Positions 297 through 6,977 of a stretch of 7,068 nt of DNA are shown piece after piece; within the stretch, counting starts at the first letter, position 1; each line of letters starts with the position of its first letter. A program made the position numbers and the translations under genes. This stretch comes from a virus. Lineage: Duplodnaviria; Heunggongvirae; Uroviricota; Caudoviricetes. The notes under the pieces are model-generated. The model had not been told where the DNA came from and made no database searches. It was given only the letters and a program-made list of their open reading frames with translations. The stretch is from IMG/VR virus record IMGVR_UViG_2534681649_000006; one strand, 5' to 3'.

Positions 297-350
297 CCTG
301 TTTACCTCTTTCTCAGGGAGTTTAGTCTCCAGGATTCCCGGGGCGGTTCA
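1..350 (-). mobile_element. IS3-family insertion sequence (IS629/IS1203-like), partial: terminal inverted repeat plus 5' part of orfA; element continues beyond the window start
   Basis: Reverse complement of 297-350 is TGAACCGCCCCGGGAATCCTGGAGACTAAACTCCCTGAGAAAGAGGTAAACAGG, which I recognise as the IS629-group terminus, followed directly by the orfA start. The flanking yeeJ reading frame is cut exactly at 350/351. Recognised from memory, not searched. Confidence 0.85.
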
Positions 351-1676
351 CTTCCCTGTCACGGGGTCTGTCAGGGTCAGGCGAACCAGTTCTTTTTTGC
401 GATATTCCAGAACGATATTGTTGTTGCGATCCACCAGATCATAACGGCTGCCTGCAAGGCTACGCCGTGCAGCGACTTCATTCGGGTCAAGCTGTTTCTG
501 CATTGCGCTGCCAGGTTGCCAGGTAAAATCGACGGCAAAACGGGTGTCATTTTCGCCCTGTTTACCCTAGCGTTGCTCCGCGCTGAAGGTCATCAGCGGG
601 AAGGGGGTATAGTTAAGTCCAGCGGTTATGGCATGAGGATTACTTTGCCGATCGTCTTTATCGAACAGGGCCACTTCATCGCCATAATACTGTTCATAGA
701 CCAGTTTACCGCCAAGGTGCGGCCAGGCGGGTAGCCAGCTTTCTGCGCGTACATCCCAGCCATTGGCCGGGCGTGCTTCATAATCGTTGTCCAGTTCAGG
801 TGCGCTGCGCCAGTTGGTCAGTCGCAAATAGCCGTTACTGCTTAATTTTAGATAGTCGCGCCAGTACTCCGCGCCAATGCCGGCGCGGGAGTGGTAACGG
901 CTAAGATCGTGGTCGAAAAAGAAGTTGATGCCTGACATCCATGTGGGAGTGAAATGACGCCAACCTAAGCCGTTGTTAATCTGCGTACGCTCGTCAGTAC
1001 GATGGAGAGTATGCTGACTGAAAAAGAGATTATCAGGCGTTTCATACCACGGATGGAGAAAATCGAACTGGGAGTTCTTCAGGCTAAAATCTTCATCCAC
1101 GCCCAGCGTGATTCTTGCGGTACCGAAGCGGCTTAACCAGTCTGTCATTGCGCCTGAAGCCTGAGAAGAGGCCCATCCACGCGCCATATTTGCCGCTTGC
1201 TCGCTGTTCATATCTTCGGCGAGCAGAGACCCGATTTGCTGTGAAGTACTGGCTATCTGTTGCTCGAGGTTGTCACTGCTATTACCCGGCGGCGGGGTTA
1301 ATTTTTTTTCACTAACTTGTGCCGGGACATCCAGTTCATCACCCTGGCGGACATTATTAAAACCTCGAGCAAACGTACGAAACTGGTTGAGTTTGCGTAA
1401 CTCAGCCACCGAAATACCGAAACGTTCGGCAACGCTTTGGGCCGATTCCAGCGCTCCAAGGATGTAGGGCACCGTATTGGCATTTGCAATGGCAATTTGT
1501 GCAGGAACTGGTTGTTGGGTTGCGGCGTTTACCACACCTTGTGCTGCCGCAGCCATAGGGAACGCAAGTTGAGTTATCAGACAGATACCCGCAGTTAAGC
1601 GGCGTAGTTTAATTCCCATCCCGCATAATATTTGTCGGTCATTTATTTCTTCTCCACTTCTCTTCTTCGTAGCCAT
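351..1676 (-). pseudogene. yeeJ: yeeJ fragment: inverse autotransporter (intimin/invasin-family) adhesin, N-terminal region only; in-frame TAG at 567-569 and IS insertion at 350/351
   Basis: Minus-strand frame from ATG 1676-1674 reads MATKKRSGEEINDRQILCGMGIKLRRL... with a signal-like segment, a LysM-like region and the start of a beta-barrel. The frame stops at TAG (567-569) after ...FSAEQR, then stays open in the same frame for 72 more codons (GKQGENDTRFAVDFTWQPGS...DPVTGK) until the IS terminus at 350. Synteny yeeJ-asnT-mtfA-serU matches E. coli K-12 as I recall it. Full-length YeeJ is over 2000 aa, so most of the gene is displaced by the IS. Confidence 0.8.
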
Positions 1677-1873
1677 GCTTACCTTCCCTGAACGAGCTAA
1701 CATAAATGCGCCCTTTCTAGCACAGCGAAAAAATGTAAATACTGATAGCAATATGATTGAAAATTAATAACTTTTCGTTAGGCAGTTTTGGGTGTGAGTT
1801 GCAAGAGGGGAGACTACTGAATAACTCAAGTTTTATAATCGAGGGGAAAATGGTGATGGCGTTCATAGCAAAA

Positions 1874-1900
1874 CGCCCTCAACCATAAAGGTCGAGGGCG
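1874..1900 (-). terminator. Candidate intrinsic terminator downstream of asnT (minus strand)
   Basis: Inverted repeat CGCCCTC (1874-1880) / GAGGGCG (1894-1900), with inner pairing that could extend the stem. On the minus strand it is followed by TTTT (complement of 1870-1873). Only a 4-nt U-run and about 90 nt from the tRNA 3' end, so weak. Confidence 0.3.
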
Positions 1901-1989
1901 CTTAAGATGTTAAAAACCCGCTATCCGTTAAAAAACAATGTTCAACTAAGGTCAGTGACATTGCGCTAAAAAAGCGAATTTTTAGAATT

Positions 1990-2065
1990 TGGCTCCTCTG
2001 ACTGGACTCGAACCAGTGACATACGGATTAACAGTCCGCCGTTCTACCGACTGAACTACAGAGGA
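1990..2065 (-). tRNA. asnT: tRNA-Asn (anticodon GUU)
   Basis: Reverse complement is TCCTCTGTAGTTCAGTCGGTAGAACGGCGGACTGTTAATCCGTATGTCACTGGTTCGAGTCCAGTCAGAGGAGCCA, a canonical 76-nt E. coli tRNA-Asn with anticodon loop CU-GUU-AA and encoded CCA. The asnT name is assigned by synteny between mtfA and yeeJ; all E. coli asn tRNA copies have the same sequence. Confidence 0.95.
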
Positions 2066-2076
2066 ATCGTGTGAAC

Positions 2077-2112
2077 GGGGCGCATATTACTTAGCGGTAC
2101 CTTGTCTGTCAA
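2077..2112 (-). promoter_or_regulatory. asnT sigma70 promoter: -35 TTGACA, 17-bp spacer, -10 TAATAT, GC-rich discriminator
   Basis: On the minus strand: TTGACA (complement of 2107-2112), 17-nt spacer, TAATAT (complement of 2084-2089), then GCGCCCC, the stringent-type discriminator typical of stable-RNA promoters. Predicted start is about 11 nt upstream of the mature tRNA 5' end. An AT-rich tract with two TTAATTAA palindromes lies upstream (2139-2170). Confidence 0.55.
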
Positions 2113-2165
2113 CACTAAATTTCATAAGTCATTTCAATTGGTTAATTAATATGCAAAGTTGTTAA

Positions 2166-2963
2166 TTAATGAACATTCGTCGCCGAAAACGAGTCTGTAT
2201 CATTAGCGTGATGCAGTCTCTGCAAAGGATCTTGTTGATAAAATTGGCAGAAACGTTGCCACAATGAAGGGAAACGAGGAGCAAAAAGTTCTGGGGCGCT
2301 AAAGAAATATTCAGAAAGTACGGCAAAACATTCAGCAGGATCGCTGGCTGCATAAGCATCAATGCTCGCCGCATTCTCGCCAACCAATTCGATTTCTTCC
2401 TGAATGTTGTTCATTGCAGCATGAAGATCGTGTTCCCAGCCAGCAACCTCACGCAACGGAATAAAGGGAACTCCGCTGGCGCGATCGCCGTTACGGGTGT
2501 CCAGCTTATGAGCGACTTCATGAATAATCAGGTTAAAACCAGAAGCATCAAAAGAATCTTGTATATCCAACCAGTTCAAAACGATAGGCCCTTGCTGCCA
2601 GCTCTGACCTGACTGAACAATACGTTGGTTATGCACCAGACCGATATCGTCTTCCCATTCATCATCGACCACAAATGGCGCAGGATAAATTAAGACTTCA
2701 TGAAAACCATCCAGCCATTCCAGTCCTAACTCCAGAACGGGTAGGCAAAATAGAAGTGCTATCCGGCAGCTTCTTAATGAATCCAGTTCAAAGCCCTGTA
2801 AAGGAACAAGCCGCTTTTGCTGTAAAAAACGTTCGGCAAGAGTGACTAATTTGCTTTGTTCCTGTTCCGTCAGACACGTTAAAAGGGGGATCGATAGTGC
2901 TTCCTGCCAGGGAAGGGCAGTTTGATGTGCTGATTCTTGTACTTTCCAGGGCCACTTAATCAT
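2166..2963 (-). CDS. mtfA: MtfA (Mlc titration factor A; zinc-dependent peptidase, HExxH motif HEVAH)
   Basis: ATG 2963-2961 to TAA 2168-2166, 265 codons. Translation [28 protein letters not shown]...[21 protein letters not shown]...SATNVH matches recalled E. coli MtfA/YeeI. The track ORF 2166..3002 is a 13-codon upstream extension that I do not favour. Confidence 0.9.
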
Positions 2964-3056
2964 CGTTTTGCTCGCAAACTCGTCACTTGAACAAAATTGC
3001 ACGGACAGGGACTGTTAAAATGCCAAATTTCCTGGCATCATGGCAACCATCTGAAC

Positions 3057-3146
3057 GGAGAGATGCCGGAGCGGCTGAACGGACCGGTCTCGAAAACCGG
3101 AGTGGGGGCAACTCCACCGGGGGTTCAAATCCCCCTCTCTCCGCCA
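3057..3146 (+). tRNA. serU: tRNA-Ser (anticodon CGA)
   Basis: GGAGAGATGCCGGAGCGGCTGAACGGACCGGTCTCGAAAACCGGAGTGGGGGCAACTCCACCGGGGGTTCAAATCCCCCTCTCTCCGCCA: 90 nt with a long variable arm, anticodon loop CU-CGA-AA and encoded CCA. Divergent from mtfA, as in K-12. Confidence 0.95.
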
Positions 3147-3173
3147 AAATTCAATCACTTATACATCATTAAG

Positions 3174-4199
3174 TCAGTGACAAAAATCACACGTGGAATT
3201 ACTTGGAATATTTTCAGGTAACGGGACATCAAGTGTCGGTGAAACTTTAACCTTCCTGTCATAGATTAGCACTTGCCCCTCGGTTTTGTGACCAGAGAAA
3301 AGTTGCTTATCCCGACTGCTTCCTTCATAGTCTGAAATTCCTTTCGCCTTCAGATCATGAAAGGTGAAGTCGGTTAAAATACCTGAAATTTTGCCTGCGC
3401 GATTTCTTGCTTCTACCCACATTTCGTTAAAGCCTTTGTACATATATCGGTTGCCGTATTGATTGCTGATTACATAGGCGGATGTTGGTAACTGTTTTGC
3501 TTTTTCGATCGCCGCCTGTAATCGTGGACTCCATGCTTTTATCTGTTTTTTTCCTGTTTTCCCTTGCTGGATAAAGATCCCGTCGTTTCCAATCTGCTCC
3601 CATTTCAGCGATAACACATCGGAAACCCTCGCTGCACACAGATAGGCAATTTCCATTGCGATAAAAACAGGAAGAGGTGCAACGCTTAATACTGCCTGGT
3701 ATTCTTTGTCGGTTACATATCGTTCGCGGTTTTTGGCCTTGAATTTACTTACACCTGCACATGGGTTAGCCTTCACGTACCCTCGCTCATACCCCCAACT
3801 GTAAACGCGGGACTTCATGGTTGGCTTGCGTTTTACTCTGTTCCCCTCTCTTGTCCATGTATCGACGGATGTGTTCTGGTTTTATGGAATCTGCCGGCAC
3901 CTTACCGAATACGGCAAGCAACTTTTTTGATGTTGCAGATAATCTTTTTGTGTTCTTGGACTGAGGTCACTGTAATAGGCGCTGGCGAGGAATTTTTCCC
4001 ACAAGCGACCGAATGTCATTGCACGATCGCGATTATTTACAGTTTCCTCATACTTTTTCCATAAAGCAGCTAAACCATCCTTGATGGCGGTTAGTGTTAC
4101 AGATTCGCTGGATGTTGGTTTCCATACATAACTATATTTATTTGGGTATACATTTGGAGGTAATTTTTCGTGCTCAGGATTTTTCCTTCGTCTTCCCAT
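3174..4199 (-). pseudogene. Lambda-family tyrosine integrase with an in-frame TAA at 3882-3884 (codon 106 of about 341)
   Basis: Track ORFs 3882..4199 (MGRRRKNPEHEKLPPNVY..., lambda-Int-like arm-binding N-terminus) and 3174..3818 (catalytic domain) are in the same frame, separated only by TAA and 21 open codons (NQNTSVDTWTREGNRVKRKPT). Catalytic-domain landmarks are present: AARVSDVLSLKW (Arg I), GKTGKK, FHDLK, GHK and LIYDRK (Tyr). Confidence 0.8.
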
Positions 4200-4402
4200 C
4201 AGATCGCACCAAAATTCGGCTCTACCTCGCGTGGTGGTAAAGTTTTATTGCAGGTAAATAGATCCCGGCTGACAATCGGTTTGCCACTACGATTGGTATA
4301 GAACGGAAGCTCGTTTTCCATTAACCATTTTCGCTGGTGGCTTGCATATTTGCAGCCCGTTAATATTAGCAATTCATCTTCGGTTAAAAATAAGCTGCTC
4401 AT
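4199..4402 (-). CDS. Small phage excisionase-like / DUF4224-type DNA-binding protein (putative recombination directionality factor)
   Basis: 67 codons, MSSLFLTEDELLILTGCKYASHQRKWLMENELPFYTNRSGKPIVSRDLF..., resembling small proteins found immediately upstream of phage integrases. Its stop overlaps the int start (TGATG at 4197-4201), consistent with translational coupling. Confidence 0.6.
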   Translation of the reverse strand: MSSLFLTEDELLILTGCKYASHQRKWLMENELPFYTNRSGKPIVSRDLFTCNKTLPPREVEPNFGAI

Positions 4403-4419
4403 AGCTATATCTCATAACC

Positions 4420-4445
4420 GCCGCTAACTATATACGGTTAGCGGC
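4420..4445 (-). promoter_or_regulatory. Perfect 9-bp inverted repeat (GCCGCTAAC, 8-nt loop, GTTAGCGGC) between the exo stop and the xis-like start
   Basis: 4420-4428 pairs with 4437-4445. It lies 17 nt upstream of the xis-like ATG on the transcribed strand and is not followed by a U-run, so it is not a canonical terminator; possibly an operator, RNA processing or arm-type site. Confidence 0.3.
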
Positions 4446-4460
4446 AATTAGGGTTGAACA

Positions 4461-5003
4461 TTAAAAATCAGCCTGACTCGGGATCAGTTTTTGCCAGATA
4501 GCTGAAACGTATTTTGCCTGGTAACGAGCGTCATCAAGTGCATTATGGCGCTCACCTTCGAATGGAATAGCCGTTCTGGCATCGAAGTCTATGGCTTTCC
4601 CCAGCTCAACGATTGTGCGTACATCGCGATCGTTGTAGTAACGCCACGGGCAGGGGATCCCCTGCCGTTCGTATGAACGGCGCAAAATCGTGTTGTCGAA
4701 GTTGGCTCCATTTCCCCAGACCTGAACAAAAAATTCACCGGAGTTTTCGTCGATAAATTCCCGCAATTGTAACAGTGCATCATCTAACGGGATTTCATCG
4801 GTCATAATGGCAGATTGCGCTTCGCGTGATTGCTTAAGCCACCATTTAATGGTGTCCCGATCAATGACTCCGCCAGCAGTTTCCAGATCGATAGTCTTAC
4901 TAAATTCGGGTCCCATATCTCCGGTTTGCGGATCGAAAAATATTGCACCTATTGAGATGATCGGGGCATCAGGATTTTTTCCCATGGTTTCAAGGTCGAT
5001 CAT
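4461..5003 (-). CDS. DEDDh-type 3'-5' exonuclease (DnaQ-like fold), prophage-encoded
   Basis: MIDLETMGKNPDAPIISIGAIFF (Exo I, D-x-E), VWGNGANFDNTIL (Exo II) and ERHNALDDARYQAKY (Exo III, H-x4-D). I place the start at ATG 5003-5001, 7 nt after the TGA of the upstream recE-like frame. The track ORF start at 5186 adds a 61-residue Lys/Arg-rich extension that looks like an out-of-frame reading of the acidic recE-like tail. Start is uncertain. Confidence 0.65.
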   Translation of the reverse strand: MIDLETMGKNPDAPIISIGAIFFDPQTGDMGPEFSKTIDLETAGGVIDRDTIKWWLKQSREAQSAIMTDEIPLDDALLQLREFIDENSGEFFVQVWGNGANFDNTILRRSYERQGIPCPWRYYNDRDVRTIVELGKAIDFDARTAIPFEGERHNALDDARYQAKYVSAIWQKLIPSQADF

Positions 5004-5010
5004 TAGATGG

Positions 5011-6646
5011 TCACACGTCCTGCTGGTGGATGTGATTTCGTGATGACCATTCACCGTAATTAATCTCGCCAGTTTTACTATCGCTGGCGTGGTCCTGAGC
5101 GCTGCCAGCATTCTCCTTGTGTGGATGTTCAGCGCCTTCCATTTCCTCCGGATCATTTTCCTGAACTTCAACCTGATTCTCTTCATCGAATGTTTTCTGG
5201 TATGTTGCGTCGTCCATCACCGCGCCACAATCAGGGTAGTTGCCGCCACCGCTCTGACCGCAGGCGGTGCAGACTTTTTCCGGTTCCTGTTGCGCTACTG
5301 GTTCGGATTGTTTCGTTTCTGGCTCGTTTTGTAACGCATTTGGGCTGTTTTGTTCCGCTTTTTGGTCGTTCCGTTCCGATTCATGCTGGTTCTGGTTCAC
5401 AGAATCGCGAGTCTGGATCCCCTTGACCCATTTCGGATCATTAGGGTCGCTAATCCCCTCAACAAATTCACCACGCGATACAGCAAGTAACTTATCGGCG
5501 TCAGGCTGGCTGATATTGGCTGCCTGCATAATTTTGTTTACTTCGTCAGCGGTGACTTTTACTTGGTTAGCGGAACTCACCTGCGACTGAGCATCCAGCG
5601 ACTGCGCGTTCTGGCAATGTTCAGTTGTATCCGGTTCCATTGTTTCAGTTGTTGCCTGTTCACCTGCCATTGCGTCAGATGGTTGTGGTTTTTCTTCTTC
5701 TGTTTCACGCTCAGTAACCACCTCGCGGTTAATTTCTTCCAGGATATCTTTTTCCGGCGTATGCCGGGTAGCTGTGAGAGTTTCCTTGCTGGGGTTCTCG
5801 TGATCAGTTTCCGTCAAATAGGCGTTGATATACCCCTGAAGGCGTCCCGGGTAGTGATAAAATTCAGGGTGTGCGCTTCGGATAAGTGCAAAAATAGCGG
5901 CGCGGGAATAGTCCAGAATACCCGGGGGTGCACGAAGTGCTGCGGACCATTCTTTGAACGGACTTTCTTTTTTCAGGACTACTTCTTTTGCGCGACGATA
6001 AACGCTGCCCGGAATTTCATAAATATTAAAATCCATCGGAAGTGTGGCTGCTGCAATCTCCACATCCAGTGTGTCGAGGGTGTGTACTAAATTCGGATTG
6101 CGATCGGTTTTGTTCCCACCACCAGCATTAGCACCGGAAGCCGTGCGGGTGATGCGTGAAACACGATTTCCTTTCATCCACTCTTTTGTCAGCAGGCCCC
6201 GAACAGTGTAGTCAGCGTCCAAGTATGCTTCGAAAAAAGCAGTTATTAGTCCCAGGTCTGAATTACCAGGATTAGGGAAAACTTTGTCAGTGTCACGAAC
6301 CAGTTTGTGGAGGTCGCGAATCTCCAGCGAGTCGAGCAGACTGGTTTTATGCGAAATAGCCAGGGCAGTAACAGCCGGTAGTTCTTCAGCCCGTGCAATG
6401 TGTAATGCCTAGAGTTCGTCGCGTGAAACGTGCGTTACTGGTTTTTCGCTGCCGTGTTGAGCAAGCCAACGAATGGGCAGTTCCTGACCGGAGACAGGTA
6501 GAAGCATGCTCTCCTCAATCTCAGTCATGTCTTCGCCGTTGATGTTGGTATTATCAGTGCTGGCTGATTTGTCCTGAACAGAGGGGGAAGGGCCGATAAA
6601 TGTCATTGTGATGCCATCTTTCCCGCCTTTTTCATAGCGGTTGCAG
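5011..6646 (-). pseudogene. RecE (exodeoxyribonuclease VIII)-like N-terminal region: 5' end cut by IS1 at 6646/6647, in-frame TAG at 6409-6411
   Basis: One minus-strand frame reads CNRYEKGG...[47 protein letters not shown], then TAG, then [36 protein letters not shown]...[36 protein letters not shown]...[19 protein letters not shown]...[10 protein letters not shown]..., ending at TGA 5013-5011. Long stretches match my recollection of the non-catalytic N-terminal part of Rac RecE. The track ORFs 6409..6660 and 5011..6222 are in the same frame; their apparent starts are TTG codons, the first inside the IS1 terminus. Confidence 0.75.
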
Positions 6647-6701
6647 GGTAATGCTGCCAACTTACTGATTTAGTGTATGATGGTGATTTTAAGGTGCTTG
6701 C

Positions 6702-6977
6702 GTGGCTTCCATTTCCATCAGATGTCCTTCCTGCTCCGCTACTGAAGGCGTGGTGCGTAACGGCAAAAGCACTGCCGGACATCAGCGCTATCTCTGCTCT
6801 CATTGCCGTAAAACATGGCAACTACAGTTCACTTACACCGCCTCTCAGCCCGGTACGCACCAGAAAATCATTGATATGGCCATGAATGGCGTCGGATGTC
6901 GCGCCAGTGCACGCATTATGGGCGTTGGCCTCAACACGGTTTTACGTCACTTAAAAAACTCAGGCCGCAGTCGGTAA
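6702..6977 (+). CDS. insA: IS1 InsA (transposition inhibitor / N-terminal part of InsAB' transposase)
   Basis: GTG start at 6702. Translation [91 protein letters not shown], 91 aa, stop TAA 6975-6977. It differs at a few residues from the IS1A InsA I recall, so a divergent isoform. Confidence 0.9.

Follow-up and report, generated by a model that had tools for sequence, protein, structure and literature searches.

Exonuclease VIII, the RecE protein encoded by b1350 of the Rac prophage, has at its N-terminus a domain whose function is listed as unknown, and a nuclease domain at residues 564-866 (PMC11611040). It is encoded by an early-left-operon gene near xis and int that overlaps recT, and ahead of its 5'-3' nuclease domain, which is of the PD-(D/E)XK type (PF12684), it carries a PF06630 domain, a central region, a four-cysteine motif and acidic linkers. 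DEDDh-type nucleases of phages have been described in other settings: gp34 of Salmonella phage epsilon34, a standalone protein of 182 residues encoded between SSB and Abc2 and beside a Rad52-family annealase, is treated as a DnaQ-like 3'-5' nuclease of the Rec module (PMC12315714), and DexA of phage T4 is a DNA exonuclease (PMC12153337). Here we analyse a 7,068-nucleotide stretch of DNA from a Caudoviricetes record (IMG/VR IMGVR_UViG_2534681649_000006; the whole stretch is called the window below), in which minus-strand positions 6646 to 4461 hold a RecE-like region followed by a DEDDh exonuclease domain. We show that this segment is the pseudogene of a single early-left-operon gene, and that it belongs to a lambdoid prophage which a chromosome of Shigella boydii type carries at a tRNA-Ser gene next to mtfA. 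Taken as a whole, the reading of the segment as a broken fusion, whose intact form tethers a 3'-5' exonuclease, is in our judgement very likely correct.

An earlier note on this DNA, made from the letters alone, had described a RecE-like frame that ends in a TGA and, seven nucleotides later, an ATG that opens an exonuclease gene. The list of open reading frames (ORFs) and the sequence agree with this layout: an open stretch on the minus strand runs from 6645 to 5014 and is terminated by a TGA at 5013-5011, seven nucleotides (ccatcta) follow, and the ATG at 5003-5001 opens a 180-codon ORF whose end is at 4461. The parts of the segment, and the insertion sequence (IS) that borders it, are as follows.

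6647 to 7068, plus strand: left end of IS1, with the inverted repeat GGTAATGCTGCC... from 6647 and insA at 6702-6977
6412 to 6646, minus strand: remnant of the RecE-type N-terminal domain (PF06630), codons 82-160 of an 813-codon gene
6409 to 6411, minus strand: in-frame TAG at codon 161, which is CAG in all relatives
5064 to 6408, minus strand: RecE-like central region, a conserved core with acidic low-complexity linkers (RecE BLASTP, NF007259)
5496 to 5404, minus strand: motif within the RecE-like central region
5215 to 5271, minus strand: four-cysteine, zinc-ribbon-like motif common with RecE (RecE alignment)
5063 to 5064, minus strand: site of an 11-nucleotide deletion (alignment to intact relatives)
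5011 to 5013, minus strand: TGA met in the shifted frame (sequence)
4461 to 5003, minus strand: DEDDh exonuclease domain, DnaQ-like and of Rv2179c/DexA type, 180 codons and stop (PF16473)

The upstream frame belongs with RecE. The PF06630 (Exonuc_VIII) profile matches the window ORF at 6660-6409 with an E value of 2.2e-13 and an intact homologue of 813 residues, described below, with an E value of 3.6e-35, and by BLASTP the translation of 6408-5014 is 57% identical to residues 151-586 of K-12 RecE over 455 residues (E = 3e-168). For the intact protein, identity to Rac RecE is 58%; the alignment pairs its residues 58-615 with RecE 50-591 and extends no further. Residues 1-615 of the same protein cover positions 1-602 of the 877 in the NCBIfam exonuclease VIII equivalog profile, NF007259, with a score of 943.7 bits, below the cutoff of 1269, and at the DNA level the homology of canonical recE to a probe across the junction ends at ORF nucleotide 1837. 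Beyond this boundary K-12 RecE goes on into PF12684 (residues 615-850, E = 4.1e-28), whereas in the prophage gene a DEDDh domain takes over at about codon 613; Pfam profiles gave no PF12684 match in the window ORFs or in the intact protein. Since identity to RecE stops at residue 591 and PF12684 then starts at 615, and given the published limits of the nuclease domain, these alignments place a swap of the C-terminal head at about codon 613, at the RecE nuclease-domain boundary. The window locus is thus not RecE: tests for three features that define RecE, a PD-(D/E)XK domain, a score above the equivalog cutoff and a recT partner, all came out negative. Within the shared region, RecE and the 813-residue protein both have CxxC...CxxC followed by GDATYQETFDEE; the corresponding motif, CxxCGQTGGxNCPDCGAVM at 5215-5271, has tyrosine in place of its third cysteine in the window (C552Y relative to the nearest intact relative). 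A zinc ribbon is suggested here by the pattern of cysteines.

Profile score and motifs identify the downstream ORF as a DEDDh exonuclease, and the domain is complete. PF16473 (Rv2179c-like) matches its 180 codons with an E value of 2.5e-67 and 226.4 bits, against a gathering cutoff of 27, and the RNase_T profile does so with an E value of 2e-5. The Exo I motif is MIDLET (5003-4980), Exo II is WGNGANFDNTIL (4718-4683) and Exo III is ERHNALDDARY (4553-4521), and in a MAFFT alignment the D-x-E of Exo I, the D of Exo II and the H-x4-D of Exo III fall on the invariant D7, E9, D119, H186 and D191 of T4 DexA. Among proteins of solved structure, DexA (8KEL/8KEN) is the one relative that sequence comparison turned up; it is a distant member of the DEDDh subfamily to which the head belongs (E = 1.8e-6, 26% identity), with all catalytic residues kept and with extra loops of its own. 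Much closer is epsilon34 gp34, whose DEDDh domain is 56% identical and matches PF16473 with an E value of 2.3e-73, and which differs in standing alone, without a RecE-like scaffold. The PF16473-type subfamily to which the head belongs is represented in 1249 phage records, and standalone phage homologues of 182-190 residues start just four residues upstream of ATG 5003. A 3'-5' polarity is predicted for the head, as is its substrate, whether DNA or RNA. The profile searches thus gave the PF06630 and PF16473 matches and the lack of a RecE-type PD-(D/E)XK match that the earlier note had anticipated, and the point that gave that note its title, a DEDDh exonuclease in the place of the RecE nuclease domain, holds with homology to RecE stopping at residue 591.

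In relatives, the two parts are one protein. The earlier note had proposed an alignment with intact homologous prophages, and in phage and prophage records that match the window DNA at 96-99% we find both parts fused in a single ORF of 2442 nucleotides and 813 residues (L001, L002 and L007; L numbers denote retrieved loci), while four further loci carry a fused ORF of 823 residues (L003, L009-L011). Across aligned stretches the window is 97.9% identical to L001 and 99.1% identical to L007, its nearest intact relative, which comes from Escherichia coli FDAARGOS_944; in the latter case the aligned DNA is window 350-6646, and the two share xis, int and the same tRNA-Ser site, which we take to be serU. 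Examples of the intact 813-residue form are WP_038338946.1 (FDAARGOS_944) and URC08875.1 (phage vB_EcoS-689R5). In the 823-residue variant of phage Tritos the C-terminal approximately 370 residues are the same, and the N-terminus is different and lacks PF06630. The best 120 protein-database matches are all 813-832 residues long with PF06630 and PF16473, and one fused-protein sequence occurs on at least 1000 contigs.

The fused family is already catalogued, as a Pfam architecture, in PHROG 607, 2082 and 20376, and under the PGAP names 'exonuclease' and '3'-5' exoribonuclease domain-containing protein'; a literature search found no paper on a RecE-like/DEDDh fusion or its function. One public record among the best 120 matches (P0099) names an 813-residue DEDDh-headed protein 'phage exonuclease VIII, 5'-3' specific dsDNA exonuclease', a name that is transferred from RecE and contradicted by the domain present. 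More generally, what commonly bears the label 'exodeoxyribonuclease VIII' in E. coli prophages is in most genomes not RecE: it has the RecE scaffold, a head of predicted opposite polarity and no RecT, and its annotation as a 5'-3' double-stranded DNA exonuclease is therefore wrong.

In the assembly collection, 204 blocks list the exact 180-residue DEDDh product as a gene in its own right. We considered these calls as proof of a split gene and rejected them, since six of the eight loci fetched by means of this product (L013-L020, at about 8090-10543) have a single frame of 814-817 codons open across the junction. In another of the eight, L017, an independent change of GAA to TAA in the linker creates a nonsense codon and yields 638 and 180 residues, and L018 has several frameshifts.

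Three lesions account for the state of the window copy. In the first, IS1 stands in place of the initial 245 nucleotides (81 codons) of the exonuclease gene and of all that lay upstream. Homology to intact phages ends at 6646, InsA is recognised by PF12759 (E = 4.9e-30) and PF03811 (E = 5.9e-20), and, as IS1 begins at 6647, the RecE-like frame is left without a start of its own. The IS1 junction is identical in four S. boydii relatives (L021-L024); beyond IS1 in L021, the next called gene encodes a helix-turn-helix regulator, with no dicB or ydfD between, which associates IS1 with a deletion. The second lesion is a CAG-to-TAG change at codon 161 (Q161*, 6411-6409); neither this stop codon nor the missing start is mentioned in the earlier note. 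The third is the absence of 11 nucleotides between window 5064 and 5063, the single indel within the gene in the alignment to L001. The missing bases are ORF nucleotides 1829-1839, which read CGGCAGATCCC in S. boydii Sb227, and their loss shifts the frame exactly at the end of DNA homology to recE, so that the TGA at 5013-5011 is a consequence of the deletion and not a native gene end. This is the frameshift between about 5004 and 5070 that the earlier note had raised as one of its options, and by splitting off the DEDDh part it makes that part look like a separate ORF. As aligned, the deletion removes exactly the codons at which homology to RecE ends, which may or may not be a coincidence. 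Compared with L007 and its product WP_038338946.1, the window copy lacks codons 1-81 and has Q161*, D230V, T322P, C552Y, two synonymous changes and the 11-nucleotide deletion, with no codon difference in the DEDDh part. By descent the window copy is a member of the fused RecE-like/DEDDh family, as its near-identity to the fused S. boydii relatives argues; its ORF is interrupted, and it is a pseudogene.

The S. boydii relatives, which were found by way of a 214-residue frameshifted integrase fragment, put these lesions in order. The whole window, with its IS1 junction and its integrase frameshifts, is matched by S. boydii Sb227 (CP000036.1) and by three genomes related to it, at 5, 1, 1 and 7 mismatches in L021, L022, L023 and L024, respectively, over 6719-7068 aligned bases. 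A fused, IS1-truncated ORF of 718 residues is called in L021, L022 and L024. The window differs from L023 in a C/T at 6411, the 11-nucleotide deletion, a 1-nucleotide indel in IS1 and an IS in int, present in L023 and absent from the window; the TAG is the sole base substitution in the whole window relative to L022 and L023, and besides the TAG, the deletion and the IS1 indel, the four relatives show 0-6 further substitutions. The 11-nucleotide deletion is absent from L021-L024 and from all 5426 complete E. coli genomes; at its site the best E. coli matches have 96.0% identity, with 261 bases of the query set against 272 of the record, which we read as identity save for the missing 11 nucleotides. 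An exact 29-nucleotide pattern for the deletion had no match in species-representative genomes or in the retrieved loci searched, and no exact-product record was found for the extended ORF of 241 residues. The appearance of two genes is thus a very recent lesion in an already dead gene. The IS1 indel, at 7021/7022, distinguishes the window from each of the four S. boydii relatives; apart from it, this part of IS1 is the same or almost the same in them. It could stem from variation between IS1 copies or from an error of sequencing, and the trust placed in the two private lesions depends in part on it.

A similar fate has befallen the corresponding gene of E. coli K-12. In the Qin prophage, ydfE (b1577) occupies the same position, in the order dicB-ydfD-ydfE, and has also been destroyed by an insertion sequence. 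Its product (L012, 4079-4999) corresponds to the first 255 residues of the 823-residue Tritos variant at 99% identity, and that variant ends in the same DEDDh domain. The difference is that ydfE has the alternative N-terminus without PF06630, and that it kept its 5' end and lost its DEDDh end to IS2 (IS2E), whereas the window copy lost its 5' end to IS1. Judged by this alignment, K-12 once carried the same gene class and lost the nuclease end.

The fused gene is common, contrary to the rarity that the earlier note had implied. A 501-nucleotide junction probe, scored when covered at 80% or more, detected the fused junction in 4017 of the 5426 complete E. coli genomes, about three quarters, where the gene is routinely annotated. 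RecE catalytic-domain DNA was found in 1730 of these genomes, and all matches listed also overlie recT. The order dicB, ydfD, exonuclease, xis, int recurs in seven loci with several different attachment sites (L001-L003, L007, L009-L011); in the window xis, int and tRNA-Ser are present and the dicB-ydfD side has been replaced by IS1. Between the stop of the exonuclease gene (4461) and the start of xis (4402) lie only 58 nucleotides, so that no recT stands between the module and xis/int, as noted earlier, and no recT stands beside the fused gene in any of the seven loci. Nor was a RecT, Red-beta, Erf or Rad52-type annealase annotated or called in the retrieved stretch, which starts at or beyond the repressor/cro region and runs to int, in these seven or in L013-L020. 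The gene is accordingly not part of a two-component SynExo recombinase, which pairs an exonuclease with a single-strand annealing protein. The 'domain-swapped recombination module' proposed in the earlier note therefore survives in its first half, as homology to RecE does stop at residue 591, and is unproven in its second, with no annealase and with xis/int alongside.

The heads joined to this scaffold were also compared across protein clusters. A search of 1.84 billion cluster representatives with the RecE-like part of the window returned 204 clusters, and the C-terminal heads of the 80 representatives with at least 450 residues were typed with local phmmer: 20 have a PD-(D/E)XK head, 14 a DEDDh head and 46 neither. 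Some of the headless representatives are probably fragments, and some are like the nuclease-less 'RecE-2' proteins mentioned elsewhere (PMC12315714). Relative to the window gene, the DEDDh-headed representatives are 55-99% identical in the head and 35-93% identical in the core, which indicates a long-standing architecture reshuffled by recombination; by this measure, the fused architecture is old and mosaic. A separate observation from the same search is a cluster representative of 703 residues (P0123) in which PF06630 (E = 4e-98) runs straight into PF03837, the RecT domain (residues 528-678, E = 1e-42), a recE'-recT fusion without a nuclease domain.

These comparisons suggest what the gene would do where it is whole. 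The intact protein of about 813 residues consists of a PF06630 N-terminus, a RecE central region and, from codon ~613, the DEDDh domain. In intact phages the RecE-type scaffold would tether a metal-dependent 3'-5' exonuclease, which would work on the 3' ends of nucleic acids in the lytic cycle, with no annealase from the phage. In K-12 Qin, dicB-ydfD lies downstream of dicA and dicC, which are regulator genes, and this operon is repressed in the lysogen; the fused gene is probably co-transcribed with dicB-ydfD and would then be silent in the lysogen. The window would not make the full protein, and at most a promoterless 180-residue DEDDh fragment from ATG 5003. By analogy, the link of the head to DNA transactions runs through epsilon34 gp34, at 56% identity and in the context of a Rec module.

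Several points weigh against this view of the protein and of its decayed copy. Substrate, polarity and biological role of the fused protein are all predictions from sequence. The phages that carry the fused gene have no annealase, and the gene sits beside xis/int, a place where sporadic DnaQ-type genes are not counted in the Rec module (PMC12315714). The PF16473 family is named for a mycobacterial exoribonuclease. A single-sequence structure prediction for the 813-residue protein gave a mean predicted local distance difference test score of 36.6 and a predicted template modelling score of 0.21, and is unusable for the fold of the scaffold. Finally, the nonsense codon and the 11-nucleotide deletion are private to the window sequence.

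We tentatively raise a broader possibility, that the N-terminal and central parts of the RecE type form a targeting scaffold indifferent to nuclease polarity, to which phages attach either a 5'-3' PD-(D/E)XK head, in company with RecT, or a DEDDh head of 3'-5' polarity and no annealase, the DEDDh form being the commoner in E. coli and its function not yet described. Candidate roles for the DEDDh form would be the trimming of 3' ends for phage recombination dependent on host RecA/RecBCD, or the destruction of competitor nucleic acids. If the scaffold reading is true, the DEDDh form would show what the long-unexplained N-terminal region of RecE does. The natural swap of heads at the RecE nuclease boundary is in any case a ready-made comparison for the contribution of the scaffold. 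For the window itself this carries little weight: what it holds is a further example of a decayed prophage gene in an IS-rich Shigella-type genome.

The alternative that survives best concerns the role of the intact gene, which might be mainly an anti-phage defence or superinfection-exclusion nuclease, like EcD or 'TONDO', and not one for recombination or DNA processing. The distant relationship of the head to T4 DexA lends it some support, as EcD, an E. coli homologue of DexA, protects against T4 and degrades DNA modified with 5-hydroxymethylcytosine (5hmC; PMC12153337), and prophage DEDDh 'TONDO' exonucleases with auxiliary domains act against MS2 and Qbeta (PMC13344964). The gene's place in the operon is also accessory and close to int, and most E. 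coli genomes have kept the gene. EcD is, however, a different sequence: the primers used to clone it give a start of MIDTET... and an end of ...TIPETY, and we rejected the identity of the head with published EcD. The residues reported for 5hmC recognition, which enter into the EcD/'HREX' criteria, are not conserved either, W152 of DexA being Tyr and D169 Ala in the window head while the D90 position retains Asp, in a MAFFT alignment at 26% identity in which single positions are uncertain. PADLOC returned a weak, generic match to a Cas-associated DEDDh nuclease on the domain (1.3e-6) and none on the full protein, and the gene follows dicB-ydfD, downstream of dicA/dicC in Qin, in an operon repressed in the lysogen. 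A defence role is a live alternative, rather unlikely in our estimate and not favoured by the evidence here.

That the TAG and the 11-nucleotide deletion are sequencing or assembly errors, and that the real locus has the Sb227 form, a continuous, IS1-truncated ORF of 718 residues, we regard as improbable. The few differences between the window and L023, and the restriction of the deletion to the window among all genomes searched, count in favour of this reading. A clean deletion of 11 nucleotides and a single transition are nonetheless atypical of assembly errors, and the lineage already shows other prophage decay in the integrase frameshifts, the IS1 deletion and C552Y. Were both private changes errors, the gene would still be without its first 81 codons and its promoter, and the verdict of a 5'-truncated pseudogene would be unchanged.

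Least credible is the view that the window holds two genuine, separately translated genes, a RecE-N-like gene and a DEDDh gene coupled through the TGA, 7 nucleotides and the ATG, which the earlier note had offered alongside a broken fusion: the short spacing, the many separate calls of the 180-residue product, the standalone homologues that start so close to ATG 5003 and the independent nonsense codon of L017 are compatible with it, but it is largely refuted by the open frame in most of the loci called in this way, the fused junction in 4017 genomes and in the nearest relatives, a split that is due to a deletion seen nowhere else in the genomes searched, an upstream frame without a start and with an internal TAG, and the lack, judged by eye, of a good and suitably spaced Shine-Dalgarno sequence ahead of ATG 5003.

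The broken fusion is set in a prophage end that has decayed elsewhere as well. Downstream of the exonuclease come a DUF4224 excisionase-like gene, the integrase and tRNA-Ser, and L001 and L007 have the same xis neighbour.

4415 to 4450, minus strand: hairpin in the exonuclease-xis spacer (RNA fold)
4199 to 4402, minus strand: excisionase-like gene (DUF4224; PF13986, E = 7.7e-13)
3174 to 4199, minus strand: integrase pseudogene (deletions relative to L007)
3057 to 3146, plus strand: tRNA-Ser(CGA), prophage attachment site, beside mtfA (same layout in L001 and L007)

Relative to L007 the integrase has lost 11 nucleotides at 3813/3814, 1 at 3922/3923 and 3 at 3198/3199. L021 and L024 align to the window without a gap across these sites, and so have the lesions in common with it, and L022 and L023 have an additional IS at 3903/3904 that is missing from the window. 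The 11-nucleotide deletion in the integrase has the same length as that in the exonuclease gene. At the far end of the window, yeeJ (an inverse autotransporter gene, 1-1751) is disrupted, its N-terminal ORF stopping at 567, with 1-nucleotide insertions relative to L007 at 1577 and 1968; positions 1-349 are missing from most E. coli matches, which begin at 350. An Rfam scan of the whole window matched two tRNAs only, and a scan for promoters and terminators called nothing in the region of the exonuclease gene. The spacer hairpin at 4415-4450 has a 14-base-pair stem and a folding energy of -22.7 kcal/mol (z = -4.08; none of 200 shuffled sequences reached this stability), and has no T-run and was not called as a terminator. 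Lacking the T-run, it is not a classical terminator, and it could be a candidate processing or retroregulation site for int/xis expression.

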